Positions 5,606-58,458 are shown, numbered from the stretch's first letter. The stretch: 64,000 bases of DNA from Armatimonadota bacterium (GCA_020060775.1 JAGUZN010000220.1:984-64983), one strand, 5' to 3'. Numbers and translations are program-made. Notes: generated by a model from the sequence alone, not told the origin.

Positions 5606-6843
5606 CGACGTATTTGTCAGGAGTATATGCTCAGCAACTTAGTACCCTAGCGACACATATCGCTGATGATGCAGTGTGGCCATCTCCGTACGCCGGGTTT
5701 CTTTACTATCTGTGTAACAAATACGATCAGCAGTTTCTGGCACCTTTGATTAACCCTTCACCGCCATGTGTTGAGCTCGGGCGGCTTTACGAGGCACCGA
5801 TTCTTGCATCAGCAGGATATTTATTCGCGCTTAACCATCCTGTAGTTCGTGCAAGTTCCGAAGCTTGGCATATTGGGTTTCAACGGCTTGCTGGGCGCGA
5901 TCCCTTCCCAATTGACCGCCAGTCATTCGTATATCGTCCAATAGAACTGCTTGGTATTACACTTGGAGTGAAGCACTGCCCTAATACTACGCAGGCAGAG
6001 ATTGATTGGCTTATAAATGTGCTACAGAGTGCTGAAAGCCGGCTGAAGAGTGCGTCCTGTTGGCAGTACCTGCTTGGTATGTATGCTTCACGACTACTGG
6101 GTAATTCCTGGGCAAAGCGTTCCTGGGATATTGGGCAATTCCCTGTGGATGACTTGAGCATCGTGGTATGGCTGTGCGCCAATACTCCTGATTTAGCGTT
6201 TGAATTCGGTGTAGACCAATTATACAAGCAAGCAGAGGAATCATTACTGACCCAGTGTGCAAAAACGGAGGTTACCATCCCAGATCCCGCACGTGCTGCA
6301 ATACTCTACTCTAGTCTTGACCGAGCTGTGAGCCGGAGTATTGAATCAGAGCACGAGCGCAATTGGCAAATAGGCCGTGATCAAGCCGATGCCCTCTCAA
6401 TCGTTATCACGTTATGCCGTAGATTTGATTTGTGTGTAAGGCAACTCCAACGTAGGCAGCGAAGTCGCAATCCTTTCACTGTACAAGATGAGTATGATGT
6501 CCAAGACCTGATGCATGCTTTGTTGAAGTTACACTTTGATGATGTTCGTCCCGAGGAGTGGACACCGTCATATGCTGGCAACGCATCACGCGTCGATTTT
6601 TTGCTTAAACGAGAGATGATCGTTGTTGAGGTAAAGATGACTCGCGATAGCCTAGCTCAACGTGAGCTAGCGGACCAATTAATTATTGATAAAGAGCGGT
6701 ATCGATCACATTCTGACTGCCGTATACTGGTGTGTTTTGTTTATGATCCGGAGCATCGCTGCACGAACCCGGCAGCATTGGAGAATGACCTCAGCGAGCA
6801 GATCGGTCTATTTAGGGTTGAAGCAATCGTCTCACCTGCGTAG
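5602..6843 (+). CDS. Protein with a C-terminal PD-(D/E)xK nuclease-like domain (restriction-endonuclease fold); candidate effector of the short pAgo operon
   Basis: ATG at 5602 overlaps the pAgo stop TGA (5603-5605), i.e. ATGA coupling. C-terminal motif 'DEYDVQD...SRVDFLLKREMIVVEVKMTRD' has D-x11-E-V-K spacing. The N-terminal ~300 aa are of unknown function. Confidence 0.5.
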   Translation: MTTYLSGVYAQQLSTLATHIADDAVWPSPYAGFLYYLCNKYDQQFLAPLINPSPPCVELGRLYEAPILASAGYLFALNHPVVRASSEAWHIGFQRLAGRDPFPIDRQSFVYRPIELLGITLGVKHCPNTTQAEIDWLINVLQSAESRLKSASCWQYLLGMYASRLLGNSWAKRSWDIGQFPVDDLSIVVWLCANTPDLAFEFGVDQLYKQAEESLLTQCAKTEVTIPDPARAAILYSSLDRAVSRSIESEHERNWQIGRDQADALSIVITLCRRFDLCVRQLQRRQRSRNPFTVQDEYDVQDLMHALLKLHFDDVRPEEWTPSYAGNASRVDFLLKREMIVVEVKMTRDSLAQRELADQLIIDKERYRSHSDCRILVCFVYDPEHRCTNPAALENDLSEQIGLFRVEAIVSPA

Positions 6844-7290
6844 GTCTGCGGAGCAATGTTATGCAAATGCAATTCGTCGTACATCCGAGAACGTATGAGA
6901 TCAACGGCTATTTCTTTCAAGTGCTGTCATGTTGCGCGTTGACTGATGGGCAGGCAGCTAATGCTGCCATGCATTTTTATCAAACACATAAGCTAAAGAA
7001 GAAAGACAAAGGAAAATTAATTAAAGTCATAACGAGCCCTGATACGGATACTGCAGGAATCTTTGGGTAGCACGGCTACCTATGACTACAGATACGCCAA
7101 CCTAAGTTATGCAACGTGATCTGAAGGAAGCATTCAGCAGTATTACCAGGTTACTCCTACATGAGCGTGAGGAGTATTCATTAGGTCGGTCCAAAGACCG
7201 TGCTGATATTTTAAGCGCAGGGTCTCCAATTCCCTCATGGCAGCCCCTGCGACCATTACCTATGTGGATGGTCCTTCACTTATTTGATAC

Positions 7291-8298
7291 TTACAGATCA
7301 AGCAATGATGCCGAATTCTCTTGAAACAACACCCCCATGCGGATATACCGCTGCACCATCACATTCGACCGATGACCGGTCTGCTGCATGATAGATCGCT
7401 CGTTTGCACCTGCACGGGCGGCGGCGGTGCAGTGGCCGGCGCGCAGGGAGTGACCGCTGTAGCGTTTCGGATCAAGGCCGATCTCTTTCACCATCTTCTT
7501 GATGAGATTGGCGACGGCACGATCCGATAAGCGCTCACTGCAGAGTTTGTCATGACGGTTGATGCCGCGGAAGAGGGCGCCGCCGGTAATCCCGCTGGAT
7601 TCCAGCCAGGATTTCAAGGCACGCACTGGACAGGTTTCTTCATGAGTGCCAAATGGTATGGCGACCCAACGCCCTTCACCTTCTTGATCTGTTTTTGATC
7701 GGCGGAGGCAGATAACGACTCCTTCCTCCCTGAAGGTCAGGTCGGCGACATCAAAGGCGACCAACTCGGAGCGCCGGAAGGCGCCAGCGTATCCCAGGAG
7801 TAGCAGTGCGCGGTCCCGCCGGCCTTTCAATGTCTCTGGTAATACCGCCATGATGCGTCTCATGTCATCGGTCATCAAGGCATCGACCTGGCGGGCGGTG
7901 ACGCCGATCCGCCGGCGAATGCCGCGCATGACGGCCCGCACGGCGGCGTGTTGGGTGGGGGAGGGGTGGCCAGCGTGTTGGTGGATGGCGCTGATGGCGG
8001 CCATATAGCGCGAGAGCGTGCTGTACTTGTGGTCGGTCGTCGCCATCGCCGTCATGTAGCAGGCAATCGTCTCAGGGCTGGCCGGCATCGACGGCAAGTG
8101 GTATTGTTCGCACCAGGCCACGAACTGCTGCCAATCCCGCTCGTAGGCCTCCCGCGTGTGTTGCGAGATACCTTCCTCGATGAACTCCTGGACTTGCTCG
8201 ATCAGTGGAACGAGAAGGGTGTGATCGGGGTGCTGGTTGGCACTGGGCCCGATCCGGGCAGGCAGTGATGCTGGCTGGGTGATGGGAGCCTGATCCAT
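7291..8298 (-). CDS. Tyrosine site-specific recombinase / phage-type integrase
   Basis: C-terminal catalytic region 'HSLRAGHCTAAARAG...TGHRS..MVQRYIR' (R..H..R..Y pattern). It sits at the GC-content transition at the right edge of the lower-GC island. Confidence 0.8.
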   Translation of the reverse strand: MDQAPITQPASLPARIGPSANQHPDHTLLVPLIEQVQEFIEEGISQHTREAYERDWQQFVAWCEQYHLPSMPASPETIACYMTAMATTDHKYSTLSRYMAAISAIHQHAGHPSPTQHAAVRAVMRGIRRRIGVTARQVDALMTDDMRRIMAVLPETLKGRRDRALLLLGYAGAFRRSELVAFDVADLTFREEGVVICLRRSKTDQEGEGRWVAIPFGTHEETCPVRALKSWLESSGITGGALFRGINRHDKLCSERLSDRAVANLIKKMVKEIGLDPKRYSGHSLRAGHCTAAARAGANERSIMQQTGHRSNVMVQRYIRMGVLFQENSASLLDL

Positions 8299-8561
8299 TA
8301 ACTGAGTCTTATCGGAAGCTAGAATAGCTTCGAGCTCAGAATAGAGTCAAGTCGCGCCAGTTCAATCCTAAATGTGTTCCCCCTCGGGCTGTCCCCAGCC
8401 GTCATCCTCTGCATTTTCTACCCGAAATGCCTCTAGGCGAGTACGTTTGGCTACACATTTTGCCCTGGAGGTGCCATGTGTTCACGACAGATCGGTTTCT
8501 AGCTTCCGTTAAGACTCAGATATGAGCTACAACGTGTCTGGTAACACCGGTAGGGGGCAGG

Positions 8562-8927
8562 GTGCGTAATACGTTACTTTTAGTTGGTGGCGGCGAATTA
8601 TCAACGCTCATCTACAAGCCTGCCCTGGAGGACGCCAATTTTCAGGTAATCCTTACGCCTGATGCACGGGTGGCAGTGCAAATGGTCATACAGTACCATG
8701 CTCAAAGTATTCTCATTGATGATTCGATTCAGCCCAGTCAAGCTGAGGAAATCATCACCAATATCCATCAACTCACCCCAACAGTTAAGAGCATTTTGCT
8801 CTGTGATGGCGATAATATCAGTGATAATGCTCTCCAGTACCTGTTTGATGGCATATATCAGAAAAGCTGGCCATTACCAGTTTTAGTCACACTGGTTCGT
8901 TTTCTTCTGTGTCAGCAGGAGTCCTAA
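8562..8927 (+). CDS. Atypical CheY-like receiver-domain protein (degenerate; lacks the canonical acidic pocket)
   Basis: 121-aa ORF with an alternating hydrophobic-strand pattern ('LLLVGGG...ILIDDS...ILLCDGD') in a lower-GC patch; weak similarity only. Confidence 0.25.
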   Translation: MRNTLLLVGGGELSTLIYKPALEDANFQVILTPDARVAVQMVIQYHAQSILIDDSIQPSQAEEIITNIHQLTPTVKSILLCDGDNISDNALQYLFDGIYQKSWPLPVLVTLVRFLLCQQES

Positions 8928-9098
8928 GCAACCCGGCGTTTGCTAGAGTGGAAGAATGGGAAGCTTGACAATCCAAGCTGAAGAGCGTATCGTTTCACCA
9001 TATTAATGCATACCTCAACTATGTCCGAGATGCATATCGCCGTCTGCATTACCTGGGAGACATAACCGTCGCATCCGGGCACGCTGCGCTTTTTTCAC

Positions 9099-9134
9099 CT
9101 CTTCCCGGATGCCGGGAAGGGGTTTTCTTTTTCA
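9099..9134 (+). terminator. Intrinsic terminator-like hairpin (CTTCCCGG-ATG-CCGGGAAG) followed by a T-tract
   Basis: Perfect 8-bp inverted repeat read directly, followed by GGGTTTTCTTTTT. Confidence 0.4.
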
Positions 9135-9939
9135 GGGGGTCCGTTTGATTGCGCTTCGAGGCGATACCCGCTTGTTGCCTTTGGTCTCATGGTGGCAGAC
9201 AGAAATCCATACCGTGTTAAGCGACAAGCTGCAAGCGGTGGTGCTGGGCGGCAGCACGGTGCTTGGCGATTTCCAGCCGGGGTGGAGCGATGTCGATGTC
9301 TGCGTGGTGCTGCGTACGCCGATCACGGAAGCCGAAGGCGCTGTTATCGGACAGGTGCACGACGCCATGCGTGCCCACTTCATCGACGGTGGGCAAGATG
9401 GCTGGCGATCAGGTCAGGCCATTGAAGGTGCCTATATCACCGGCGAGATGTTGCAGTATGGACACGCTGGCACCTGTTACGTCGCCGGCGGTAGCACGCG
9501 CTGGTGGGGTGTGAAAGATCCTATTTCGCCGTTCGACCGCCTGATATATGCCCAACACGGTTGCTGGTTGTTTGGTGAAGAAGTGCCTATTGCCCTGCCA
9601 GATGGAAAGGCTTTGCGGGCACAATCTATCCGCGATTCGCAGGAATTCATAAACCCACCAGCCGGGTGCCTGGAATCCGCCATCTGGCTGGCCGGCATCA
9701 TGCACTGGTTGTCCCGCACGCTGGTCTTCTGGCGGGATGGGGAACTGGTATCCAAAACCGCCGCGCTGGAGCGCGAGGTCGCCGCTGGTAGACCGCTGGC
9801 GAGCGCCTTCATCCTGCCCCTGGCCTTGCGGCGGGAGGGGAGTGCAGCGTGCCGGCAGCATGTTGATGATCTTCGGTATAATTACCAGGCGAATCTTGAT
9901 ACGGCTGTGCAGTCATTGGTCGAAGTCGGACTGCTGTAA
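9109..9939 (+). CDS. Nucleotidyltransferase, aminoglycoside adenylyltransferase (ANT/AadA)-like; true start probably downstream of 9109
   Basis: Pol-beta-type NTase motif 'LGGSTVLGDFQPGWSDVDVCVVL' (GS...SDxD); length is about that of ANT(3'')/(9) enzymes. Confidence 0.55.
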   Translation: MPGRGFLFQGVRLIALRGDTRLLPLVSWWQTEIHTVLSDKLQAVVLGGSTVLGDFQPGWSDVDVCVVLRTPITEAEGAVIGQVHDAMRAHFIDGGQDGWRSGQAIEGAYITGEMLQYGHAGTCYVAGGSTRWWGVKDPISPFDRLIYAQHGCWLFGEEVPIALPDGKALRAQSIRDSQEFINPPAGCLESAIWLAGIMHWLSRTLVFWRDGELVSKTAALEREVAAGRPLASAFILPLALRREGSAACRQHVDDLRYNYQANLDTAVQSLVEVGLL

Positions 9940-33335: not shown

Positions 33336-33659
33336 CTCGGTTTGGTAAGGTTGGACCCTGTTACGTTATTGAGCTCGAATGCTTACCTGTAGACCAAGGG
33401 CACGTCCTTGCTCAACAGGCTGCTAGGCACCAGCACGGTCTGTTCAATATGCGCACGGGTAATCGTCCCCTTGGAGAAGTGACGGTATACCCATGCGCGC
33501 TTTTCATTCCCGCTCGGTCAGGTGAGTCACGGCGTCCAGCCGGCCCGGCACTATATGGGGGAGCCGAGCCTTATGGCTTATAATCGGTTGTGGACGTGGC
33601 AATGAGAATACGATCAGTACCGATACCACTATTTTGGGGGAAGGAAGGAATCCGCTGCT

Positions 33660-35342
33660 TTGCACCAAATACACTATTTGTGTGCCATCATGCCGATTAG
33701 GACTGATAATATGAGTTTGTCAACAAAAACTCCTCAAAATCCAGATCTGGCAAATCCTAGCAGTTGCCATTCCAGTTTAGGACCCCTTAGGCTGCCGCAG
33801 TCATTTTATGGCGATGCGTTCACGACGTTTCTATATGGAGCGGCGATATGCTGTATCGTTACGAAGGTCGATGCTGGTTATTCATGGTCTAATTTCGGTC
33901 TGTTGGCAATCATCTATATATTTTTTGATTGGGTTAGCAGAATTCTTTTACCATCATGTTTGCCCAATGACGACTTAGCTGTGAGAAATCGCATATACTT
34001 GAATGTGCTAAAAGCACTACTGGAAGCTGCAGGTTTATACTTGCTTACCGCTTTCCTTCTATCTGTTTTCACAACACCATTATACGGGTTATTTGCAGGA
34101 TTTTTGATCGTCAATTTATTGTGGAATTTGTTGTTGTTGTATATTATGGGTGGCCTTGGATGGAGGGACTTACAAGATGTTTGTTTTAAAGGTAATGGAA
34201 TGGATAACGAAGCTATAGCATTACATTCGTCGACCATTACGGAAATCGAAGCTCTAATAGAGAAGGCTGATATCTCTACTGACAATGCAAACACTAGTAG
34301 TCAAGTCATAAAAACGTATAATAATCACATAAAGCTTCGTAGTAGTATCAATTCAATAGGCGCAATCTACCGGATGCTCATACAATTGTTCGCATTTCAT
34401 GTTCGATATGGATATGTAGTTATTGTAATATTTGTTGCCAAGATGCTATTGGAGAGTACAACGAATACTTGGGGAAGTTTTCTGTTGAAAAAAACATATT
34501 TTTCTGTAGTGCTTGATTTCGCACAAGTCACAACAATGCACATAAGCATTTTTTGTGATAATGGCTATTTGGATGAGATATTTCTTACTGTATTAATATT
34601 AATACTTTGTGGTTTTGTTTTACGCTCTGTTAATATCAGTAATGTTTTTCAGAGTGATTGGTGGAAAAGTTACATTGCTAGTATTAAAGATAAAAACTAT
34701 GAAATGCTTGTCCCGTGGATGAAGATAATATGCAGTGTACCACTTTTCTTTGCTTGTTTGTACATATTATATATAATATGTTTTGTTGTATACACTTATT
34801 ACCCGCAGTTGTTCGCAGGTATTGATAGTGAAGGTGTAGGCATTGGCTTCCCAATCTTACTTTTTATTTATATTTTGTTGTTTTTCATACCTTTCTTATT
34901 TTTTAAATACGCACAACTTAATAAAATTATGAAAAAATCAATTGCTTCAAATGGAGATAACCATAAGAATCACGCCTCTATTTCTTGCTCATGCCCTCCT
35001 TCCAAAATCCAAGGAGAGGAGGAGAATAAAGCGATTGTCATTGAGAATTTACGATTTCAACAGGCTTGTAGAAATGGGTCATTATCACTTTATATCATTC
35101 TATTACTACTTTACTTCGCGTTGCCGATAAAAGACTTTGCAATATTTATTGCATTCCAGCAGGCCTGTGTTACGCTATTCCTATGTATCGCCGTATCTTG
35201 TCCACTTGAACAGAGAGATGAACCTATTGGCAACTTATGTCGAATGAACTCCCCGAGACCGACTTCGTGCCCTCCAAATATTAACGACGGGCTTGATGAT
35301 ACAACATCAGTGACGCCGAAAGAACAGGTAACAAGTTCATAG
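33660..35342 (+). CDS. Multi-pass integral membrane protein of unknown function (strongly AT-rich gene)
   Basis: 560-aa ORF with many hydrophobic segments; local GC content is far below the surrounding DNA. Confidence 0.5.
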   Translation: MHQIHYLCAIMPIRTDNMSLSTKTPQNPDLANPSSCHSSLGPLRLPQSFYGDAFTTFLYGAAICCIVTKVDAGYSWSNFGLLAIIYIFFDWVSRILLPSCLPNDDLAVRNRIYLNVLKALLEAAGLYLLTAFLLSVFTTPLYGLFAGFLIVNLLWNLLLLYIMGGLGWRDLQDVCFKGNGMDNEAIALHSSTITEIEALIEKADISTDNANTSSQVIKTYNNHIKLRSSINSIGAIYRMLIQLFAFHVRYGYVVIVIFVAKMLLESTTNTWGSFLLKKTYFSVVLDFAQVTTMHISIFCDNGYLDEIFLTVLILILCGFVLRSVNISNVFQSDWWKSYIASIKDKNYEMLVPWMKIICSVPLFFACLYILYIICFVVYTYYPQLFAGIDSEGVGIGFPILLFIYILLFFIPFLFFKYAQLNKIMKKSIASNGDNHKNHASISCSCPPSKIQGEEENKAIVIENLRFQQACRNGSLSLYIILLLLYFALPIKDFAIFIAFQQACVTLFLCIAVSCPLEQRDEPIGNLCRMNSPRPTSCPPNINDGLDDTTSVTPKEQVTSS

Positions 35343-35384
35343 TTAATGGTATATAAGTGATCATCAGATTGGAGTGACCAAGCG

Positions 35385-36842
35385 ATGTCTATGATTGATC
35401 TAGTCATAATAGGAGTTTATTTGATGGCGTTGTTCTGCTGGGCTATTTATATTGGCCTGCGAGAAAACGCCCAAGATTTTTTGGTTTTCTCGCGGCGTGC
35501 TCCTTTTGTGCTGGTATTGTTTTCTATTGTAGCTACCTGGGTTGGCGTTGGCACGACCGTAGTGACAGCGGCATCGGCATACGAATCCGGTATCTCACTA
35601 GGATTGATCGCCTGCCTTGGGGGCGTGTTGGGGTCTATCGGTGCCGCAATCTTTGCCCCTCGTCTGAAAGCGTTTGGAGACCGTTTCAACGCGCATACCA
35701 TCGGAGACTTCTTCCTGATCCGGTATTCAAACGGTGGACGCTTGATGGCTGGTGCACTGATAACAATCGTCTATTCACTGCTGACCGCCGCGCAACTCGT
35801 AGGGCTTGCAACGCTCTTGAAGGTTTGGACTGGGCTTCCTGTGGAGGTCGTCATCATTTTTGCTGCGTTTTCCACCGTAGCCTATACGGCGTTCGCTGGG
35901 ATCAAAAGCGATTTTTATACCGACATCATACATTTTATAGTTATGGCAATTGTTCTCTTTGTTATCCTATTGCCATTGACACTGGATAAAATTGGCGGAT
36001 TACATGGATTGCTGCGATTACCTCATACTTATTTCGATCCCTTCTCCTACGGAGGGCCAGCTCTATTCATCGCTGGAATGATCTTTGGCGCAGGCAGTGT
36101 TTTCGTGACCATGGAGCTTTGGCAACGCGTCTACGCATCAACAACCGGACGTGCCGCACGTATCTCGCTTGCAGTTGCCATCCTTCTTATCGTTCTCTTT
36201 TACGCGGTATCCACTGTGTTGGGTATGTCAGCAAAGCTACTATTACCGAATCTGCCGAATCGTGATTTTGCCTTGTTTGCGATGATGAAAGAGTATTTAC
36301 CTACAGGTATGCTGGGGCTAGGGATGTCAGGATTCATGGCGATTATTCTGTCTACCTTAAACTCAACACTGATGGTAACCTCTGCGACCTTCACCAAGGA
36401 TTTCTGGTGTGGAGCTCTTAATAAATCCGCTGATGACCAAAAGGCATTGTTATCTGTGGGCCGAATTTCTACATTTGTGAGCGGAGCTATTGGTCTGGGG
36501 ATTGCCTTGATACTACCTGATCTGGTTGCCTTAAGTGTCAATGGCATGTTCATGTTGCTGATCATCCTTCCAGCCATCGCTGGGGGATTCTTCTGGCGAC
36601 GTGCTACTGCCACGGCTGCAACGCTTTCCGTCTTCGCAGGAGCGCTTGTGACAGTGATTTTCTTGAAAATCGATGCTGGTATCGCGTTTGTGCCTGGTTT
36701 TCTCACAAGCCTTCTAGTTTTCGTTATTGGCTCTCTTGTCACTGAGCACTCTATAGAAGAAAATATTGGAGTTGTTTCTATGTGGCGAGGGAAAGCGGAA
36801 ATCCCGTCGATGCATGAAGGAGATGTTCATGACTTACGTTAA
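35385..36842 (+). CDS. Sodium:solute symporter family (SSS) transporter
   Basis: N-terminus 'LVIIGVYLMALFCWAIYIGL...DFLVFSRRAPFVLV...ATWVGVGTTV' typical of SSS/PutP-like permeases; ~13 TM segments. Confidence 0.65.
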   Translation: MSMIDLVIIGVYLMALFCWAIYIGLRENAQDFLVFSRRAPFVLVLFSIVATWVGVGTTVVTAASAYESGISLGLIACLGGVLGSIGAAIFAPRLKAFGDRFNAHTIGDFFLIRYSNGGRLMAGALITIVYSLLTAAQLVGLATLLKVWTGLPVEVVIIFAAFSTVAYTAFAGIKSDFYTDIIHFIVMAIVLFVILLPLTLDKIGGLHGLLRLPHTYFDPFSYGGPALFIAGMIFGAGSVFVTMELWQRVYASTTGRAARISLAVAILLIVLFYAVSTVLGMSAKLLLPNLPNRDFALFAMMKEYLPTGMLGLGMSGFMAIILSTLNSTLMVTSATFTKDFWCGALNKSADDQKALLSVGRISTFVSGAIGLGIALILPDLVALSVNGMFMLLIILPAIAGGFFWRRATATAATLSVFAGALVTVIFLKIDAGIAFVPGFLTSLLVFVIGSLVTEHSIEENIGVVSMWRGKAEIPSMHEGDVHDLR

Positions 36843-37932
36843 TACTGTGGAGCAAGTAAGCGATAAGCTGATGGCTGCTACCGATTCTGCGAATTGTTCT
36901 GCGATGTCAGCCTTACTCCACCAGGTGTGCCAATCGCTTCAAGAGTCTGACGCATCATTCTTGCGTCATTGGTATAATAGTCGGCTTACACGCGCCTGCG
37001 AAAACCCTATGCTTGGCGAAAAAGCCGTTACCATCTTCGCAGATTTGCTAGGAATTACCGTCGAGACGGCACAATGCGTTGAGAAGCCATGGATGCTTCT
37101 ATACATCCATGCACTCTTATTAGATGACATGATTGATTATATCCCTAGAGAAGAATCAAAAAAAGTTCAATCATTATGCAGCGCTTTCGATAGGGAACAC
37201 AATAAAGTATGTGAGCTGCTATTGAATGAAAATTTTGTGGTGTATTCACATCACCATCAGCGCTTCAATGCTGAAGCATGGGCAGCTATAACTTACGAGA
37301 TTGAATGGTCAAAAGGAACTAGATTCACATCACATAATGAAGCGCCACGTCAGCAAGGCCTCAAAGCCGCTCTCGCAAAGTCGTGTGCTACCATGCTTAT
37401 GCTTGCTGAACGTGGTATACCTCTTTCATCAGAACAGGAAGAGGGCATTATTACATTATGCGAAGGTATTCAACTTCTAGACGATTTTGCTGATATGACA
37501 GAAGATTATATGCAAGGACGTATGAATAGGTTGTTGAATACAACATATCGATGGATAAGGAGAAATCTGCCATGCATAGATATAGCTTATCTGGGCAAAT
37601 ACCAGCTACTCGTCTCTGCGATTCTTTCTTCTGCGATTACCTGCACATGGATTGATGCGGCAAATCGATATGAGCAGACATTGCAGATATTTAAACCCTC
37701 TAGTGAGTGCTGGACTGCTCAATATTTTTTGCAACAATCAGTGGAATGTCGACTATGCAGCACTGCATTAACTGATTTACTCACGCAAAATCGTTGCCTG
37801 TTGGATCAACTCATCACAGCTCTGAGTGTGAACGAAGAAGAATTAGCGTGTAAGTTAACAACCGGATGCCTAGCCGGTTTATGGCAAGATATTCGCTATA
37901 TTATTGGGACAGGACCAAAAGCAAGTAATTGA
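36829..37932 (+). CDS. Isoprenoid synthase fold protein (polyprenyl synthetase / class I terpene synthase-like) with two Asp-rich motifs
   Basis: 'HALLLDDMIDY' (DDxxD) and ~125 aa later 'GIQLLDDFADMTED' (second DDxxD preceded by a G..Q-like context). Start placed at ATG 36829, overlapping the symporter stop. Confidence 0.4.
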   Translation: MTYVNTVEQVSDKLMAATDSANCSAMSALLHQVCQSLQESDASFLRHWYNSRLTRACENPMLGEKAVTIFADLLGITVETAQCVEKPWMLLYIHALLLDDMIDYIPREESKKVQSLCSAFDREHNKVCELLLNENFVVYSHHHQRFNAEAWAAITYEIEWSKGTRFTSHNEAPRQQGLKAALAKSCATMLMLAERGIPLSSEQEEGIITLCEGIQLLDDFADMTEDYMQGRMNRLLNTTYRWIRRNLPCIDIAYLGKYQLLVSAILSSAITCTWIDAANRYEQTLQIFKPSSECWTAQYFLQQSVECRLCSTALTDLLTQNRCLLDQLITALSVNEEELACKLTTGCLAGLWQDIRYIIGTGPKASN

Positions 37933-38321
37933 CCGTGGGCAATTCCATCATCGCCTGGGCAATATAGACACTTTTTTCTGAATTAGGTGACAGTATGGGC
38001 AAACTGAAGTGTTCTCAGGAGGCGCGTTTTTTCTTCCGGCATTTTGCCCGGCGTCGTCGCATCTCCTCATAATCGGGTAACGCGTATGCCGGTTCTTCCC
38101 CCTGTGCCCTGGCAGCTTTAGCGACTTGGCACCTGAGTACCCCACGTGCGAAGATATCGACGAGTTCCGCCAGGCGGGCCTCGGGGGTCATCTTGGTCGG
38201 GTCGATGGTGGTATTGAACATGGGACACACCCCTTTCATGAACGTATGACGGACAATACCTCAACATCGGCTGACATGGGAAGGGGATGGCGGAAGATTG
38301 TTTTTGAGGATAACGTAGGAT

Positions 38322-39686
38322 ATTTTTCGCACTTTCACCGAGGGGTTGCGGTGTAGCCCTTTCGCTGAGTAGAGTGTAAGCGCCAACTTACCATACTCAC
38401 GAAAGGGACTACACACGATGAACACTACGACAATCACTGGTGAGAGTCAAGCCCAAGCCGGGCTGGTGACGATCAATGAGGGGGAGCTGCGGGCGCATCT
38501 CGACCAGATCGTCACCGGCGCGGTGGAAGAGACGCTGAACCAATTGCTTGACGCGGAAGCGGAGGCGTTGTGCCAGGCGCGACGCTATGAGCGGACGGCG
38601 ACGCGGCAAGATACGCGGGCCGGGCATTACGCGCGTAAGCTCCAGACGCGGGCGGGCGAGGTGACGCTGAAGGTGCCGAAACTGCGGCAGCTGACCTTTG
38701 AGACGGCGATCATCGAGCGCTACCAGCGCCGGGAAGCCTCGGTGGAAGAGGCGCTGATCGAGATGTACCTCGCCGGGGTGAGCGTCCGGCGGGTGGAAGA
38801 CATCACCGAGGCGCTGTGGGGCACGAAGGTGAGCGCCTCGACGGTGAGTGACTTGAATCAGAAGCTCTACCTGCGCCTGGACGACTGGTTGGCCCGTCCG
38901 TTGACCGGGGACTTTGCCTACGTCTATCTGGACGGGCTCTGGCTGAAGAAGAGTTGGGGCGGCGAGGTGCAGACGGTCTCGGTGCTGGTGGCGGTGGGGG
39001 TGAGCGCCGACGGCTACCGGGAGATCCTGGGAGTCGCCGAAGGCATGAAGGAGGATACCGCAAGTTGGCGGGACTTCCTGCGGGGGATGAGGGCGCGGGG
39101 ATTGCAGGGTATCCGGCTGGTGGTCTCCGATTGCTGCCTGGGGCTGGTGGAGGCGCTGGGCGAGGTCTTCCCCGAGGCTGCTTGGCAGCGGTGCGTGGTG
39201 CACTTCTACCGCAATGTGCTGGGACAGGTGCCGCGGGGTAAGAGCCGGGAGGTGGCGACGATGCTGAAGGCGATTCATGCCCAGGAGGATCGCACGGCTG
39301 CCCTGCAGAAAGCAGAGGATGTCGCCGGGAAACTCCGGGGGCTGAAGCTGGAGAAGGCGGCCAAGGTGCTCCAAGCGGGCATCGCCGATACGCTGGCGTA
39401 CTATGCCTTCCCGAGTGAGCACTGGCGGAGTCTGCGTACGAATAATCCGTTGGAACGACTGAATCGAGAGATCCGTCGGCGGACCCGCGTGGTGGGCTGT
39501 TTCCCCGATGGCCGCTCGGCGGTGATGCTGGTGACCGCGCGCCTGCGGTATCTGGCCAGTAAAGACTGGGGGACCAAGCGGTATTTGAACATGCAACGCC
39601 TCTGGGACGCGGCGCCTTCCGGGGAGGAGGGCGCGTAGCGCGGAGGACAATCAGGCGCTCATACTCTACAAAAAGTGCGAAAAACT
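38322..39686 (+). mobile_element. IS256-family insertion sequence (about 1.36 kb) with imperfect terminal inverted repeats
   Basis: Left end 'TTTTTCGCACTTT' (38324-38336) versus right end 'AAAGTGCGAAAAAC' (39673-39686), inner 'GAGTAGAGTGTAAGCGCC' / 'GGCGCTCATACTCTAC'; contains an intact mutator-type transposase. Confidence 0.65.
38418..39638 (+). CDS. IS256-family (mutator-type) transposase
   Basis: 406 aa; 'IEMYLAGVSVRRVEDITEALWG...YVYLDGLWLK...REVFPEAAWQRCVVHFYRNVL' is characteristic of Transposase_mut. Confidence 0.85.
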   Translation: MNTTTITGESQAQAGLVTINEGELRAHLDQIVTGAVEETLNQLLDAEAEALCQARRYERTATRQDTRAGHYARKLQTRAGEVTLKVPKLRQLTFETAIIERYQRREASVEEALIEMYLAGVSVRRVEDITEALWGTKVSASTVSDLNQKLYLRLDDWLARPLTGDFAYVYLDGLWLKKSWGGEVQTVSVLVAVGVSADGYREILGVAEGMKEDTASWRDFLRGMRARGLQGIRLVVSDCCLGLVEALGEVFPEAAWQRCVVHFYRNVLGQVPRGKSREVATMLKAIHAQEDRTAALQKAEDVAGKLRGLKLEKAAKVLQAGIADTLAYYAFPSEHWRSLRTNNPLERLNREIRRRTRVVGCFPDGRSAVMLVTARLRYLASKDWGTKRYLNMQRLWDAAPSGEEGA

Positions 39687-53410: not shown

Positions 53411-53480
53411 CTCAAGAAAAGTGTCGTAAAGCTGCACATATTCCCTTGACAAGAGGTGCAACACTGGAGGCGATCACTGT
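53411..53480 (+). promoter_or_regulatory. Conserved upstream region (TCAAGAAA..TGCACATAT..CCTTGACA-N17-GGCGATCA) duplicated in front of paralog A; second copy at 54797-54868 in front of paralog B
   Basis: Direct comparison of the two upstream regions: a shared TTGACA -35-like box, conserved downstream block, and identical RBS context AAGGAGGATCTCCC(T)ATG. Confidence 0.35.
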
Positions 53481-53595
53481 CCACGCTGTCGTTTCGCCGG
53501 TCATGTACCTGGTCGCGCGGGGATCGGTTACACACAGCGTGCGCTCGGTGAACATACGAGAACACTGTCACAGGGAACAAAAGGAGGATCTCCCT

Positions 53596-54630
53596 ATGCT
53601 TAGGATGATGGCCGTTCTCGCGGTGGGGGGCGCGATGCTCATCAGCAGCCTCGCGTACGCTGCCCCGAGGGAGCTTTCGAGTGGTGACCTGGACACCGTC
53701 GCGGCTGGTGCGTACATCGACCAGTTCATTCCGACGATGCCGAATTCCGTGAATACCAATGCCGAATTCGCCTATGGCGACATTGCCGAAGCCGTGGGCG
53801 GCGCGGCGATCGTGGGTGATGCCAACGAAGTGACGTTGGCCGGCGCGACATGCGATGGCATTGCCGTGATTGGTAATGACAACATTACCGCTGACAACTC
53901 CAATGTGGTGGACGACGGCGCCGAGGTGGCGATCGCCGGCAATCACAACTCTGCCCTGCGCATCGATCAGGAAGATGCCGTGGCTGCGCTGGTGATTGGC
54001 CCCAATGCCACGTTCGATATCACCTTCAACGATGTTGAAGGCCTGATCGACGACGGTTCCGCCGTCGTCATCGGCGACAATAACCTGGTGGACGTGTACA
54101 TGGATGACACGGACGTCTATGGCACCATTGGCGGTAATTTCAGCCTTGTCGATACGAATACGGCAACTGCGACGATTGCGCAAACCAATACCGCCAACGC
54201 GAGTGGCGAAAGCAGTGCCGATATCACGCAGGCCAACATCGCCAACATCACCATCAACCAGAATGGCGATAACGACGATGCCTATGGCGTCATTGCGAAG
54301 GAAGCCAAGGTCGATCACGCCTTCAACGTGGATGAGCTCTACGTTGACGTGTCAGCGGATATCTGTGGTTCCTTCAACAAGGAAGACACCGCGATTAGCA
54401 TCTGCGGGCAGAATGGCGTATCCACCAATGTGAACGGCAATGCGGCCGGCCTGCAGGAAATCGGCTCATTGCTCAACACCACGAACGCCGCTGCCTCCGG
54501 CACCGGCGCGTTGGCCGATAACGGCTCGAGCATCTCGGCTGATGCCTTTGCGGACACCGCCGCCACCCAGATCGTGTTGAACGGCGTGTGCGTGGGGATC
54601 GGCATCTTCGTCGATGGTGGTGCTCGATAG
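53596..54630 (+). CDS. Secreted Asp/Asn/Gly/Thr-rich protein, paralog A, with double-glycine-leader-like motif (LSSGDLDTVAAG) after an N-terminal hydrophobic segment
   Basis: N-terminus 'MLRMMAVLAVGGAMLISSLAYAAPRELSSGDLDTVAAG'; shares blocks 'AVIGNDN', 'VAIAG', 'YGVIAKEA', 'NGVCVGIGIFVDGG' with paralog B. Confidence 0.55.
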   Translation: MLRMMAVLAVGGAMLISSLAYAAPRELSSGDLDTVAAGAYIDQFIPTMPNSVNTNAEFAYGDIAEAVGGAAIVGDANEVTLAGATCDGIAVIGNDNITADNSNVVDDGAEVAIAGNHNSALRIDQEDAVAALVIGPNATFDITFNDVEGLIDDGSAVVIGDNNLVDVYMDDTDVYGTIGGNFSLVDTNTATATIAQTNTANASGESSADITQANIANITINQNGDNDDAYGVIAKEAKVDHAFNVDELYVDVSADICGSFNKEDTAISICGQNGVSTNVNGNAAGLQEIGSLLNTTNAAASGTGALADNGSSISADAFADTAATQIVLNGVCVGIGIFVDGGAR

Positions 54631-54969
54631 ACCATCGCGGCTGATAACAGGTGAAACCAGGTGTGCGCACCCCGGGCATGCAATGGCTCGGGGTGCGTTG
54701 CTTAGTGTTGATACCCTGCGGAGCCCCGGAAGAGGGAGTGGATGAGAAAGTTGACAGATGCTCGGTTTTGCACAGGTTCTCCACCAGACGGCTTGTTCGT
54801 CAAGAAAGTGACGCCACTCCTGCACATATCTCCTTGACAATCGGTGTGATACTGAGGGCGATCATCGTACCGCCAACCCGCATGGCTGGTCGGGGTACTT
54901 CCCGCGCGACGACCCAGACAGGGACGCCGGAACGGTGAGACTATCACTGGGAAGTAAGGAGGATCTCCC

Positions 54970-55857
54970 ATGAAGACGAATGTGGGCGCGTTGCTGGTGG
55001 CAGGGCTTTTCCTCTGCAGCAGCATCGCAATCGCCGCACCGAAAGCACTTTCGAGTGCCGAGCTGGATGGCGTGGCGGCCGGGTTTGGTAACTGGGCCCC
55101 CCCGTCGACGAACAATACCCCGCAAAACATCCCCTTTATGGTGACCGAGGATGTCGCGGTGGCTGAACTCGGTGGACTGGCGATTGACGGTAACGAGAAC
55201 GAATACAAAGAGGCCTTTGCATCTGAAGATGCTATTGCCGTGATCGGCAATGACAACGAGACGATCGATGGCAGCAATTTCGTTGATGGTGATGGTGACT
55301 GCGAGATTGCCATCGCCGGCGAGATGAACGAAGCCATCTCGATCGAGCAGGATGCCGACTTCGCGCTGGTGGCCGGTGAGAACCTGTCGCTGAACGCGAC
55401 CTATAACGAAATCGGCAGTGTGGACGAGTCGGCGGTCGTGCTCGGCACCAACAATCACGTGACGGTGACGCAGGACGACACCTATATCGATGGTTTCATC
55501 GGCAACGGTGGCTACGGTGTGATTGCCAAGGAAGCCTGTGTCGTAGATTCCTTCAACACCAGCATCGTCGAGACCTATGTCACGGTGACCATTGAAGATT
55601 CGTTCAACTGCATTTCCAACACCCTGGACATCTCCGGCCAGAACAACATGACCGCGCTGGTGAATGCCAATACGTTGGGCGATCAGTACATCGGCGTGGC
55701 CGTGAACGTGACTAACGCGGCTGCGACCTCGAGTGCGCCTGGTCCGTCGGCGCCGGTGGTGGCGACCGCGCAAACGGCGGTTACCCAGGTTGTGGTCAAC
55801 GGCTCCTGCTTCTTCGGCATCGGAGTCATTGATCTCTTCCCTGGTAATGGCGGTTAA
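54970..55857 (+). CDS. Secreted paralog B with the same leader-like motif (LSSAELDGVAAG)
   Basis: N-terminus 'MKTNVGALLVAGLFLCSSIAIAAPKALSSAELDGVAAG'; conserved blocks shared with paralog A; C-terminus 'VVVNGSCFFGIGVIDLFPGNGG'. Confidence 0.55.
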   Translation: MKTNVGALLVAGLFLCSSIAIAAPKALSSAELDGVAAGFGNWAPPSTNNTPQNIPFMVTEDVAVAELGGLAIDGNENEYKEAFASEDAIAVIGNDNETIDGSNFVDGDGDCEIAIAGEMNEAISIEQDADFALVAGENLSLNATYNEIGSVDESAVVLGTNNHVTVTQDDTYIDGFIGNGGYGVIAKEACVVDSFNTSIVETYVTVTIEDSFNCISNTLDISGQNNMTALVNANTLGDQYIGVAVNVTNAAATSSAPGPSAPVVATAQTAVTQVVVNGSCFFGIGVIDLFPGNGG

Positions 55858-55950
55858 GTCGCCGCAGTCGGTTCGAACGCAAGGCGGAAGGCTTTGTCGT
55901 TCGTCTGCACGGGGGCCGGGCTCACCCGGCCCCCACCGAGATAGGAGGGA

Positions 55951-56484
55951 GTGATGACCACGAAGATTCTGCGATGGATGCTGCTCGGTGTCCTGAGCAT
56001 CCTGTGCATCAGCATCGTGGCTGCGGCGACTCCCCGCCCGTTGGCCGACCACCAGTTGGATGACGTGTACGCTGCGGGGTTCGATGTACAGGTCGATTTT
56101 AACATGGATGTTGCGGCGGAACGGCCGGAATCGGTCATTTTGCTATCCGGCGATCAACAAGCGTTGGAGTCGCTCGCCGGTCAGGGGATCACCCTGACGC
56201 GCACCATGGGCGGCGGGCGCAACACCGCCGGGCTCGACCCGAACGGCACCTATGTGCCGAATTTGCAAAACCTGACCAATAACACGATCAATCTCTCTGG
56301 AAACGCGTTGCAGAACGCGACGAGCCTGCTCAACATTTTTGCGTTGGAAGGCGATGTCGCGGTCGGTCTGAACCTGAACGTGGTGGTAAACCCGGTGAAC
56401 AGTCCGGTGAATGTGTCACAAATGAACCTAAACTGGGGCACACTCAATCTTTCGAATGCGTTGCCGACATTCGCTTCCCCGTGA
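55951..56484 (+). CDS. Secreted paralog C (shorter, Asn/Leu-rich) with related leader-like motif (LADHQLDDVYAAG)
   Basis: N-terminus 'MMTTKILRWMLLGVLSILCISIVAAATPRPLADHQLDDVYAAG'. Confidence 0.45.
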   Translation: MMTTKILRWMLLGVLSILCISIVAAATPRPLADHQLDDVYAAGFDVQVDFNMDVAAERPESVILLSGDQQALESLAGQGITLTRTMGGGRNTAGLDPNGTYVPNLQNLTNNTINLSGNALQNATSLLNIFALEGDVAVGLNLNVVVNPVNSPVNVSQMNLNWGTLNLSNALPTFASP

Positions 56485-56524
56485 AACGAGTAGACTAGAG
56501 GAGAAGCGTAACCCCGGAGGACGT

Positions 56525-57247
56525 ATGCGAAAGTTGAACCATCTGGTCACGATGACCGTGTTGGTATGGTGGGTTCTACTGCGAACCTCACCCGCGCTCG
56601 CGGGTGAGGTTCGCGTCCCCACCTCATCGTTTGGCGCCGGCATTTCGGTGAGCGTTGAGGTGAAGAGCATCAAAGAGATGCGCGAGGACGAGATGGTGCT
56701 GCAGCGGCTGGACTACAGTTGCGGGTCAGCCGCCCTCTCCACGATGTTCACGTCCTACCTGCACCAGGCCTACACGGAGGAGGAGATCATCGACTTTCTC
56801 CTGCAGAGCGGCAATATGCAAAAGTTTCTGGCGCGCAAAGGGTTTTCCATGCTTGACCTGAAACGCTTTGCGGAAGCGCATGGGGTCAAGGCGATCGGCT
56901 ATGAACTGGACCTGGAGAGCCTGGCAGAACTGAACCAGCCGGTGCTCATCCCGCTCTTCCGCAAAGCACAGGATATGCGTCACTTTGTGATCTTCCGTGG
57001 CATGCATGATGGCCGTGTCTTCCTGGCAGACCCGGCGGTGGGGCGTACGGTTATTCCCGTTGCGCAGTTTGAAGAGGAATGGACGCCGCGCGTCGGCATG
57101 GTCTTCCAGCGCCCGGGCTGGCCGACATGCGACGTGCATGCGCTGGCGGTTGAGGATCGCGATCGCATTTATCTGGATACCGAGCAAGTACGCGCCTTGA
57201 TTACCAATACCGTGGCGGACGTCTTCCACCAGGCGAATGAGTTTTAA
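56525..57247 (+). CDS. Secreted papain-like C39-family (double-glycine leader) peptidase domain protein, standalone
   Basis: Signal peptide; 'LQRLDYSCGSAALSTMF' catalytic-Cys context of C39/C39-like peptidases; downstream His-containing region 'MRHFVIFRGMHDGRVFLADP'. Confidence 0.55.
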   Translation: MRKLNHLVTMTVLVWWVLLRTSPALAGEVRVPTSSFGAGISVSVEVKSIKEMREDEMVLQRLDYSCGSAALSTMFTSYLHQAYTEEEIIDFLLQSGNMQKFLARKGFSMLDLKRFAEAHGVKAIGYELDLESLAELNQPVLIPLFRKAQDMRHFVIFRGMHDGRVFLADPAVGRTVIPVAQFEEEWTPRVGMVFQRPGWPTCDVHALAVEDRDRIYLDTEQVRALITNTVADVFHQANEF

Positions 57248-57363: not shown

Positions 57364-58458
57364 GTGCGTATCACACCGGTTTTTGTTGCAGTGCTGGCAG
57401 CGCTGTGGTGCTGCCTGATGTCTGCCGCTACGGCACAGGTCACGCAATTACCCGGCATTCCTGCGGAAACCAGCCCGTTGCCCGTGGAAGACACGGCACC
57501 TGCCCCCCTACCCACCGGCGAGGGAGAGGACGAGGTGGCGCCACCGCCGGCCGAAGAGGCGGCGTTACCCTCGCAGGTACGGCGGGCGGACCTGATGATC
57601 AAGCGCGGCGAAGCTGAGTTGGAATGGCGCGTGTCCTACTCGCATTTCTCCTCCAACACCCTGTTTATCGATGGCGTGGCCATGTTGCCGATCATGGTTA
57701 TCGGCAATGTGGCGGTCGAACGCGTGCGGCGCGACCTGATCATCACGTCGGCGGCGGTGCGCTACGGGTTGCAGGACAATCTGGAGGGCGAGGTTCGCCT
57801 CCCCTTCCGCTACCAGTTCGAACGCCGGGCTGTTCCCGATGCCTCGCCCCCGCAGGAAGATACGCTCAACGGCTTCGGCCTGGGTGATATCGAAGGGGCA
57901 CTGTATTACCAACTTCCCAAGACACCGCAGAGCACCGTGCGGTGGATCGTCAGCGCCGGGGTGAAAACCGCTACCGGCAAGGATATCTTCGAAATCGATA
58001 CCAACGAGGAAGTCCCACTGGGCTCGGGGTTCTGGAGTTCGAAGTTCGGCATCACCGGCATGAAGATCGCCGATCCCGCCGCGATCTACTGGAACGCGGG
58101 CTTCACCTATAACTGGCTGCGGGAGAATATCCGCATCGTCTCGACAGATCAGACGACCGGCGACACCGTAGTCAGTTACGTCAATATCAAACCGGGCAAC
58201 ACTATCGATTTCGGCGGCGGCGTGGCCTATGCGCTGAATCCCAAACTCTCCCTCAACATGGGCGTGTCCGCCAGCTTTAGCGGTTCGACCACCTCAAACG
58301 ACCGGCGCGTGCCCAACACCGCGGTGACCAGCGCCACCCTCCGGTTAGGGGCGGTGTGGGTAGGGGAAGTCCTGCCGGTTGATCTCTCGCTCGGCATCGG
58401 GCTCACGGAAGACTCTCCGGACTTCACGCTCGAATTCCGTCAGAACTATCGATTTTGA
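57364..58458 (+). CDS. Putative outer-membrane beta-barrel protein (transporter-like) with signal peptide and C-terminal aromatic residue
   Basis: Signal peptide 'VRITPVFVAVLAALWCCLMSAATAQ'; Pro/Glu-rich linker; alternating amphipathic strands; ends '...LEFRQNYRF'. Confidence 0.45.
   Translation: MRITPVFVAVLAALWCCLMSAATAQVTQLPGIPAETSPLPVEDTAPAPLPTGEGEDEVAPPPAEEAALPSQVRRADLMIKRGEAELEWRVSYSHFSSNTLFIDGVAMLPIMVIGNVAVERVRRDLIITSAAVRYGLQDNLEGEVRLPFRYQFERRAVPDASPPQEDTLNGFGLGDIEGALYYQLPKTPQSTVRWIVSAGVKTATGKDIFEIDTNEEVPLGSGFWSSKFGITGMKIADPAAIYWNAGFTYNWLRENIRIVSTDQTTGDTVVSYVNIKPGNTIDFGGGVAYALNPKLSLNMGVSASFSGSTTSNDRRVPNTAVTSATLRLGAVWVGEVLPVDLSLGIGLTEDSPDFTLEFRQNYRF

Follow-up and report, generated by a model that had tools for sequence, protein, structure and literature searches.

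Putative cargo proteins of a FapD/FapF-like secretion locus in an Armatimonadota bacterium carry a double-glycine-type tag behind their Sec signal peptides

FapD and FilB are the two named standalone periplasmic C39 peptidases. In Pseudomonas, FapD resides in the periplasm and its catalytic cysteine is needed for the secretion of FapC through the trimeric FapF (PMC5557850). The FapD substrate is described as "yet to be determined", and no canonical C39 sequence is recognized in the Fap proteins (PMC5557850, PMC6173800); mass spectrometry of FapE returned no peptides from its first ~70 residues (PMC5557850). Pairs of fapD and fapF have already been reported in other phyla (PMC6173800). We found no later paper that settles the FapD substrate and none on double-glycine tags behind Sec signal peptides. 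For exported leader peptides, C39 recognition has been described: the ComA consensus is Leu(-12)-x3-Glu(-8)-Leu(-7) ahead of a double glycine, the residue pairs listed at -2/-1 are GG, GA and GS, and in the LahT150 co-crystal the leader is a helix whose Leu-12, Leu-7 and Val-4 dock in a hydrophobic groove (PMC6363468). Here we analyze a stretch of 64,000 nucleotides from an Armatimonadota bacterium (GCA_020060775.1 JAGUZN010000220.1:984-64983, in full length the window), in which five co-directional genes encode three candidate cargo proteins (A, B and C), a C39 peptidase and an outer-membrane channel. Judged from their sequences, the five genes are an operon and constitute a secretion module of the FapD/FapF (FilB/FilC) type. 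A, B and C share a double-glycine-type tag behind the signal peptide, and we consider it moderately probable that they are exported by Sec, cut by signal peptidase, relieved of a propeptide by the C39 peptidase, exported through the FapF-like channel and assembled outside the cell.

The tags lie directly behind a hydrophobic segment ending in AYA, AIA or AAA and start 26-29 residues past the start codon, in all three proteins at the places given in a preliminary description of this stretch: LSSGDLDTVAAG in A (53674-53709), LSSAELDGVAAG in B (55048-55083) and LADHQLDDVYAAG in C (56041-56079). From AxA onward the proteins read AP-R-E-LSSGDLDTVAAG in A, AP-K-A-LSSAELDGVAAG in B and TP-R-P-LADHQLDDVYAAG in C, which sets the tag ~5 residues past AxA with the pattern L-S/A-x-x-E/D/Q-L-D-x-V-(x)-A-A/G-G. 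The strict pattern matches only these three sites in the six-frame translation of the whole 64-kb window, against a chance expectation of 0.04 matches per window (amino-acid composition and 200 shuffles), indicating that the tag is real and not a chance occurrence. The spacing of a double-glycine leader, with AG for GG, had been proposed from inspection, and the register is indeed exact at -12, -8, -7 and -4, with small residues at -2 and -1. A and B read L(-12)-S-S-x-E/D(-8)-L(-7)-D-x-V(-4)-A-A(-2)-G(-1), and C fits if it is cut after A-A. The hydrophobic -12, acidic -8, Leu -7 and hydrophobic -4 of known leaders are represented in the three proteins by L-12, E/D/Q-8, L-7 and V-4. Neither Gly-Gly nor GA or GS occupies -2/-1, where A and B have A-G and C has A-A followed by G. 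The isolated window tags have no match in NCBIfam; one related tag weakly matches a cyanobacterial bacteriocin family in NCBIfam (E=0.005, below the cut-off).

Proteins related to A and B allow the extent of the conserved region to be examined. Among 35 distinct N-termini of the family, L-12 is present in 34, L/M-7 in 35, D-6 in 32, V/I-4 in 35, and A-2 and G-1 in all 35, counts that from -12 to -1 are partly so by construction because the collecting pattern preset residue classes at -12, -11, -8, -7, -6 and -4 and fixed A-2/G-1. A-17, A-16 and P-15 are nearly invariant though absent from that pattern, and from +1 on no residue exceeds 15 of the 35. Conservation that ends at -1/+1 is, in our reading of the alignment, the signature of a recognition peptide that is removed. 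Of the 33 family representatives, 28 have the tag; among those that do not are two fragments whose N-terminus is missing, two full-length proteins that have a signal peptide yet no tag, and a weak hit. P0141 and P0150 are family representatives without the tag.

Downstream of the predicted cut, residues +2 to +9 (for example 53713-53736 in the window) form a stretch of the type hydrophobic-x-Asp-aromatic-hydrophobic-hydrophobic-Gly that is semi-conserved in many members. Examples are SVFDYVFG, GIMDWFLPG and YIDQFIPT, and the C orthologues begin with GFDVQVDF. In these stretches hydrophobic residues alternate, which suggests that cleavage would lay bare a beta-strand at the N-terminus.

All five proteins of the locus begin with one or two basic residues and 14-20 hydrophobic residues that end in AYA, AIA, AAA, ALA or ATA. 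By the -3/-1 rule these N-termini are predicted Sec signal peptides, and none of the five contains a lipobox. The same rule places the putative signal peptidase I site at the AxA upstream of the tag; a site downstream of it, which the preliminary description had named as a finding that would speak against its proposal, is not predicted.

The gene that follows C encodes, as had been recognized, a standalone C39 peptidase: a signal peptide and a C39 domain (Pfam Peptidase_C39, PF03412; 72.3 bits against a cut-off of 22, E=4.5e-20) with no ATP-binding cassette (ABC) transporter part. When the protein is aligned with 26 homologues that come from several phyla, the catalytic Cys66 (56720-56722) and His153 (56981-56983), the oxyanion Gln60 and the orienting Asp169 prove invariant, so the Cys/His dyad on which the preliminary description depended is in place, and Cys66 aligns with the active-site cysteine (CG) of the LahT150 protease domain (PDB 6mpz, E=8e-6). 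The best match is FilB (NCBIfam NF050078, 2e-35), at 122.5 bits below the cut-off of 475, a model on which the true FilB of A. baumannii scores 544.5 bits; the match to FapD (NCBIfam NF058616, an equivalog; 1.6e-28) likewise stays below its cut-off, with 99.5 bits against 330. We place the peptidase by these scores as a homologue of FapD, not an orthologue. Its closest homologues, at 50-57% identity, come from Armatimonadota metagenome-assembled genomes. The peptidase ends in an extension of ~50 residues (57097-57247, residues ~190-240) that always terminates in an aromatic residue, here Phe, the Armatimonadota homologues ending in …NEF or …HEY and many from Proteobacteria in …DLF. Soluble periplasmic enzymes do not usually end in Phe, and the residue might be a docking motif for the channel.

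The state of the active site bears on whether the tag is cut at all. It could instead be an uncleaved targeting or docking signal, bound by the C39 protein or the channel, with the peptidase cutting another target such as the channel linker, which is long and disordered; FapD has been suggested to cut FapF (PMC5557850), and A-G or A-A at -2/-1 in place of GG would suit a site that is not cleaved. Substrate-binding C39-like domains that do not cut do occur in type 1 secretion, but these lack the catalytic cysteine, whereas here Gln, Cys, His and Asp are all invariant. Moreover, conservation of the tag stops exactly at -1/+1, as expected of a scissile bond, and an invariant A/G at -2/-1 would be needless in a pure docking helix. 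We consider docking without cleavage, the strongest of the rival readings, unlikely and favor removal of the tag as a propeptide.

A wider sample of 80 genome loci was retrieved with the peptidase profile. A FapF-like gene accompanies the peptidase almost everywhere (73 open reading frame (ORF) matches across the 80 loci). ORFs in which a hydrophobic segment precedes a leader-like motif are concentrated beside the peptidase gene on its strand: 19 of the 407 ORFs nearby are of this type, versus 7 of the 3069 that lie elsewhere (odds ratio 21, p=4e-13). In 51 of the 80 loci, most of them from Beta- and Gammaproteobacteria, the small proteins that flank the peptidase have RGG-type tags with hydrophobic residues at -12, -7 and -4, in the form V/L(-12)-S/D-x-x-E/Q(-8)-L(-7)-D-x-M/L(-4)-R-G-G with Phe behind it. 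Deltaproteobacterial loci contain DUF6160/FilA-like proteins in which a signal peptide is combined with L/M-x-D-x-E-L-x-x-V/I-S/T-G/A. In ~56 proteobacterial loci (within L008-L081), two small, distantly related secreted proteins of 110-250 residues flank the peptidase gene, with their genes about -1.1 kb and +0 to +60 nt from it; their …L-x-x-x-R-G-G tag lies 20-45 residues past the signal peptide, they share the motif IQNSxxNxxIQN, and the FapF-like gene of these loci is often convergent, not co-directional. The small proteins have no match in Pfam or NCBIfam.

These comparisons also address the possibility that the tag is the first structural element of the mature proteins, a folding or polymerization helix or a cap, and that its resemblance to a leader is a coincidence to which the peptidase is unrelated. 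AlphaFold models the tag as a short helix, and a subset of members has the semi-conserved hydrophobic-x-Asp-aromatic-hydrophobic stretch behind it, which would fit such a role. The same tag, however, stands on C, a protein with a mature part of no demonstrable homology to that of A and B, and comparable tags stand on unrelated proteins (the small RGG-tag proteins and the DUF6160/FilA-like proteins) specifically beside homologous peptidases; coincidence is also hard to reconcile with an expectation of 0.04 per window. A purely structural tag is in our judgment quite improbable. A tag that addresses its bearer to the peptidase remains the reading that we prefer.

The gene downstream of the peptidase, previously described as barrel-like, encodes a homologue of FapF: residues 75-363 match the FapF structure of barrel and plug (PDB 5o65) at E=5e-21. 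The NCBIfam FapF model matches at 1.4e-28, over profile positions 120-420 only and with 99.8 bits below the cut-off of 700; FilC of NCBIfam matches at 7e-18 and Phenol_MetA_deg of Pfam with 23.1 bits. Behind its signal peptide the protein has a linker of ~50 residues rich in Pro and Glu, which leads into a plug-helix region and then the barrel. No coiled coil was found in it, the N-terminal 50 residues being Pro/Glu-rich and not heptad-like. From the homology to FapF, a protein exporter built as a trimer of 12-stranded barrels, we infer that the channel would export protein.

Two operons served for direct comparison, a true Fil operon from A. baumannii (L087) and one of the Fap type from Aeromonas caviae (L088). 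The peptidase matches FilB of the former at 1.4e-35 and FapD of the latter at 1.8e-25, and the channel matches FilC at 4e-18 and FapF at 6e-25. From these comparisons we take the locus to be a third lineage of the same machine, an orthologue of neither. As in Fap, the C39 peptidase is standalone and Sec-exported, has its catalytic residues intact and is encoded beside a FapF-homologous barrel, cargo genes are found upstream of the pair within one operon, a small tagged protein (C) stands beside the peptidase gene in the position of FapE, and the cargo is acidic and rich in Asn, Gly and Ala. Unlike in Fap, the cargo family is unrelated and lacks the Asn/Gln-rich repeat of FapC, every cargo protein is tagged whereas the published Fap proteins have no canonical C39 sequence (PMC5557850), the channel lacks the periplasmic coiled coil of FapF, and the phylum differs. 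No homologue of FapA, FapB, FapC or FapE was detected at the window locus, although the NCBIfam models of FapB, FapC and FapE do detect the Aeromonas proteins. FapE of Aeromonas caviae, which reads …PLLA and then APDPLAHLSDHFAPELADGELAHLRGRYV, has a leader-like L-A-D-G-E-L-A-H-L-R-G past the signal peptide. Profiles of the small proteobacterial proteins fail to detect this FapE, and a profile comparison showed no homology between them and mature C; we regard C and these proteins as positional analogues of FapE only and claim no orthology. In L088 (2586-3728 and 4176-4682), a transposase-like ORF, recognized by eye, lies directly upstream of the operon, and the FapB-like ORF starts without a signal peptide, its remaining N-terminus L-G-A-Q-A-L-S-N-I-R-G-S being leader-like. 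The 5' end of this operon may be disrupted.

With Fil the locus shares a peptidase that best matches FilB, a channel homologous to FilC and the order of cargo, peptidase and channel. FilA (L087), which reads …ANAMA and then MQSMDDAALSAATGQDGINIG, also resembles the window proteins in that its signal peptide is followed by M-Q-S-M-D-D-A-A-L-S-A-A-T-G, in position and style like the window tag. The Fil tag differs in ending T-G-Q where the window tag ends A-G, and the window has no equivalents of FilD, FilE or FilF. A, B and C do not match the FilA/DUF6160 models, which do detect the deltaproteobacterial neighbours of homologous peptidases. ComA, LahT and PCAT1 have a peptidase of the same family with the same catalytic residues and leader register, but their leader is N-terminal and is cut at the cytoplasmic face, whereas the window tag follows a Sec signal peptide and would be cut in the periplasm; the window also has no ABC transporter, its cargo is a large protein and not a peptide, and AG or AA replaces GG. 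Curli (type VIII secretion of CsgA/CsgB through CsgG) is alike in logic only, with Sec export, an unfolded intermediate, a dedicated channel and polymerization with a minor nucleator, but has no sequence relationship to the window proteins and no protease step.

The cargo proteins themselves are described in no current database. A and B are clearly paralogues (47% identity, phmmer E ~1e-42). C resembles them in the signal peptide and tag (BLASTP E=3e-4; hhalign 96% probability), and beyond the tag in a 35-residue Asn-rich segment alone, weakly so (hhalign E=0.004, probability 9%). The earlier view of three paralogues is thus only partly justified, holding for A and B; C shares little with them beyond signal peptide and tag and is best described as a differently built protein bearing the same address label. 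A, B and C have no match in Pfam or NCBIfam at E<=0.1. An exhaustive HMMER search with the A/B profile found only 33 representatives among 1.84 billion cluster representatives, pointing to a family that is new and rare. A word-indexed homologue search with B found B itself and one short contig only. The members of the family combine the conserved signal peptide and tag with a middle region very variable in length and sequence and a conserved C-terminal domain of ~130 residues (…YGVIAxEAxVxDSFN…DSFNxxxNTLxISGQ…NLNVTxA…). Mature A and B have an isoelectric point (pI) of ~4 and 1-2% Lys+Arg, and consist mainly of Ala, Asp, Asn, Gly, Ile, Val and Thr; mature A, for example, is an acidic protein of 306 residues, rich in Ala, Asp, Asn and Gly, with 1.6% Lys+Arg. 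Such a composition, with pI ~4 and few Lys or Arg, fits export in an unfolded state. AlphaFold2 gave a mean predicted local distance difference test (pLDDT) of 48 for B (22 sequences) and 44 for C (7 sequences).

Proteins of 176-344 residues with Sec signal peptides are hard to reconcile with a locus for bacteriocins or peptides that are made by ribosomes and modified post-translationally (RiPPs), in which double-glycine-leader peptides would be processed by a peptidase-containing ABC transporter. The leader-like motif and the weak bacteriocin-family match of one related tag (E=0.005, sub-cut-off) are what could recommend it; the peptidase, however, is a C39 domain with only a signal peptide of its own, and no ABC-transporter, immunity or modification gene is found at the locus or in the Pfam-annotated related loci. 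We rejected a bacteriocin locus for its large Sec-dependent proteins and missing ABC transporter, and give it next to no credence. The proposal of a dedicated export and processing module, not one for bacteriocins, agrees with the homology of peptidase and barrel to FapD/FapF and FilB/FilC, exporters of large fibre proteins.

Six other Armatimonadota loci (L002, L082-L086) have the same arrangement: 1-4 large cargo genes (311-1448 residues), C (~178 residues), the C39 peptidase and the FapF-like channel. The C orthologues of these loci keep L-D-x-V-Y/F-A-A-G-F. Because C is encoded immediately before the peptidase in all related loci, we suggest by analogy that it probably serves as a subunit of a minor, initiating or anchoring kind. 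In L086 the sole large upstream protein (5018-9364, 1448 residues) has a signal peptide but no tag, and the C orthologue keeps the tag variant L-M-D-G-E-L-E-Q-V-Y-A-A-G.

The site at which LapG, a transglutaminase-like periplasmic protease, cuts LapA is the di-alanine of a T/P-A-A-G/V motif. The V-A-A-G or Y-A-A-G of A, B and C could accordingly be the target of a LapG-type protease that releases a surface adhesin. The conserved four-gene block of the seven loci, however, contains no second protease gene (a dedicated LapG search of the window was not made), and nothing else is conserved around it; most family members have S/T/V-A-G, not A-A-G, and the cargo uses Sec for entry in place of a type 1 system. 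A LapG-type release module was rejected for want of a second protease gene in the conserved block, and we hold it to be very improbable.

Processing by the C39 peptidase, which we favor, would proceed as follows. A, B and C would reach the periplasm by Sec and be cut by signal peptidase I after AxA (residue 22 in A and B). The periplasmic intermediate would then begin with a 16-residue propeptide, A-P-x-x-L-S-x-x-E/Q/D-L-D-x-V-x-A-G, with the geometry of a double-glycine leader, whose helix the C39 peptidase would bind through Leu-12, Leu-7 and Val-4. Cleavage would follow A-G in A and B and probably A-A in C; in the predicted substrate peptide APKALSSAELDGVAAGFGNWAPPS the cut would fall after Gly38. 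A cut after A-G is proposed on the basis of the specificity of the peptidase family, the intact active site and the boundary of conservation. Cleavage may be coupled to, or license, the step in which the cargo, unfolded, very acidic and poor in Lys and Arg, passes the FapF-like channel, as homology with Fap suggests. Speculatively, and from analogy and gene order, A and B would then form extracellular fibres or a surface matrix, in which C would be a minor or initiating subunit.

Several points weigh against this scheme. We infer every step after Sec export, and for the signal peptidase site we rely on the -3/-1 rule only. Residues -2/-1 are A-G or A-A, not G-G. The peptidase and the channel fall far below the equivalog cut-offs of FapD, FilB, FapF and FilC, and function is transferred over a large distance. 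In the literature the substrate of FapD itself is unsettled, with cleavage of FapF proposed as an alternative (PMC5557850, PMC6173800), and the structure predictions are too poor to tell what the cargo forms. Finally, the 1448-residue protein of L086 and two tagless family members imply that the tag is not strictly required for every neighbouring protein.

The features of the locus are listed in Table 1. The unit had been delimited as 53411-57247; the functional unit extends past this end to 58458 and includes the channel. The peptidase likely starts at the ATG at 56525, behind a GGAGGA ribosome-binding site, and not at the ORF start 56456, which overlaps C. For C, a GTG one codon upstream is an alternative start.

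Table 1. Positions of the predicted features in the window.
Feature	Position	Strand	Remarks
Upstream element of A	53411-53483	+	TTGACA 53446-53451; extended -10-like TGCAACACT 53457-53465
Cargo A	53596-54630	+	344 residues; predicted signal peptide residues 1-22 (53596-53661)
Cargo A predicted propeptide	53662-53709	+	APRELSSGDLDTVAAG
Upstream element copy before B	54797-54871	+	TTGACA 54834-54839; TGTGATACT 54845-54853
Cargo B	54970-55857	+	295 residues; predicted signal peptide residues 1-22; conserved C-terminal domain of ~130 residues
Cargo B predicted propeptide	55036-55083	+	APKALSSAELDGVAAG
Cargo C	55954-56484	+	176 residues; predicted signal peptide, tag, GFDVQVDF, Asn/Leu-rich mature part
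C39 peptidase	56525-57247	+	240 residues; predicted signal peptide ~residues 1-26
FapF/FilC-like outer-membrane channel	57364-58458	+	364 residues; FapF homology

The duplicated upstream region of ~70 nt and the identical ribosome-binding site reported earlier for A and B are both present: the two copies share a 45-nt core with 80% identity, and AAGGAGGATCTCCC precedes both genes. The coding regions for the signal peptide and tag of A and B form a further repeat of 71 nt with 72% identity. The element of A, about 115-130 nt before the start codon, is probably a promoter or regulatory site. A scan of the region for sigma-70 promoters and terminators gave nothing above shuffled sequences and no sigma-70 match at the upstream element, and an Rfam scan of the region, the element included, gave no RNA family. 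Aligned upstream blocks are conserved ahead of the large paralogues in four other Armatimonadota loci. In L082, L083, L084, L085 and the window, a block of ~100 nt precedes the start codon of each large cargo gene by 110-200 nt, with the consensus CACCATAG..GCTTG..CAAGAAAGTG.CGG.GAACCTG.ACAT…TG..A.ACT…GCG.TCATCGG, in which TGnnAnACT resembles an extended -10 promoter. A conserved block with such a -10-like element implies that each paralogue has its own promoter and a long 5' leader.

The locus is flanked by genes for an amidohydrolase and AP_endonuc_2 upstream and SMC downstream, flanks that several of the six related loci share. Elsewhere in the window, a Mutator/IS256-family transposase gene (38418-39638, + strand; Pfam Transposase_mut, E=1e-114) adjoins a stretch of low GC content (~33600-38000; 0.40-0.45 versus ~0.60 elsewhere) with a sodium:solute symporter gene and two ORFs of no known family. 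This transposase-flanked stretch is possibly a horizontally acquired insert.

The preliminary description missed that systems of the FapD/FapF class are already known. The kind of machinery is that of Fap and Fil; what is new is the cargo family and the presence of tagged cargo throughout the operon. We raise, with somewhat more doubt than belief, the proposal that a Sec signal peptide followed by a double-glycine-type propeptide is the general two-step label of all FapD/FapF (FilB/FilC) systems, in at least three phyla, and that their cargo is cut by the C39 peptidase. If so, the substrates of the FapD class would be identified (FapE in Fap, FilA in Fil and all of the cargo here), and removal of the propeptide would possibly uncover an N-terminal beta-strand for threading or polymerization. 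The window and its relatives, with a clear C39 recognition sequence on every window cargo and a sharp end of conservation, make the question of the FapD-class substrate directly testable. With a general label, new secreted fibre proteins of uncultured bacteria could also be sought by a simple rule on their sequence. We suggest a search for a signal peptide followed by L-x-x-x-E-L-x-x-V-x-small-G beside a pair of C39 and FapF genes, which may, for example, reveal surface or fibre proteins of the Armatimonadota.

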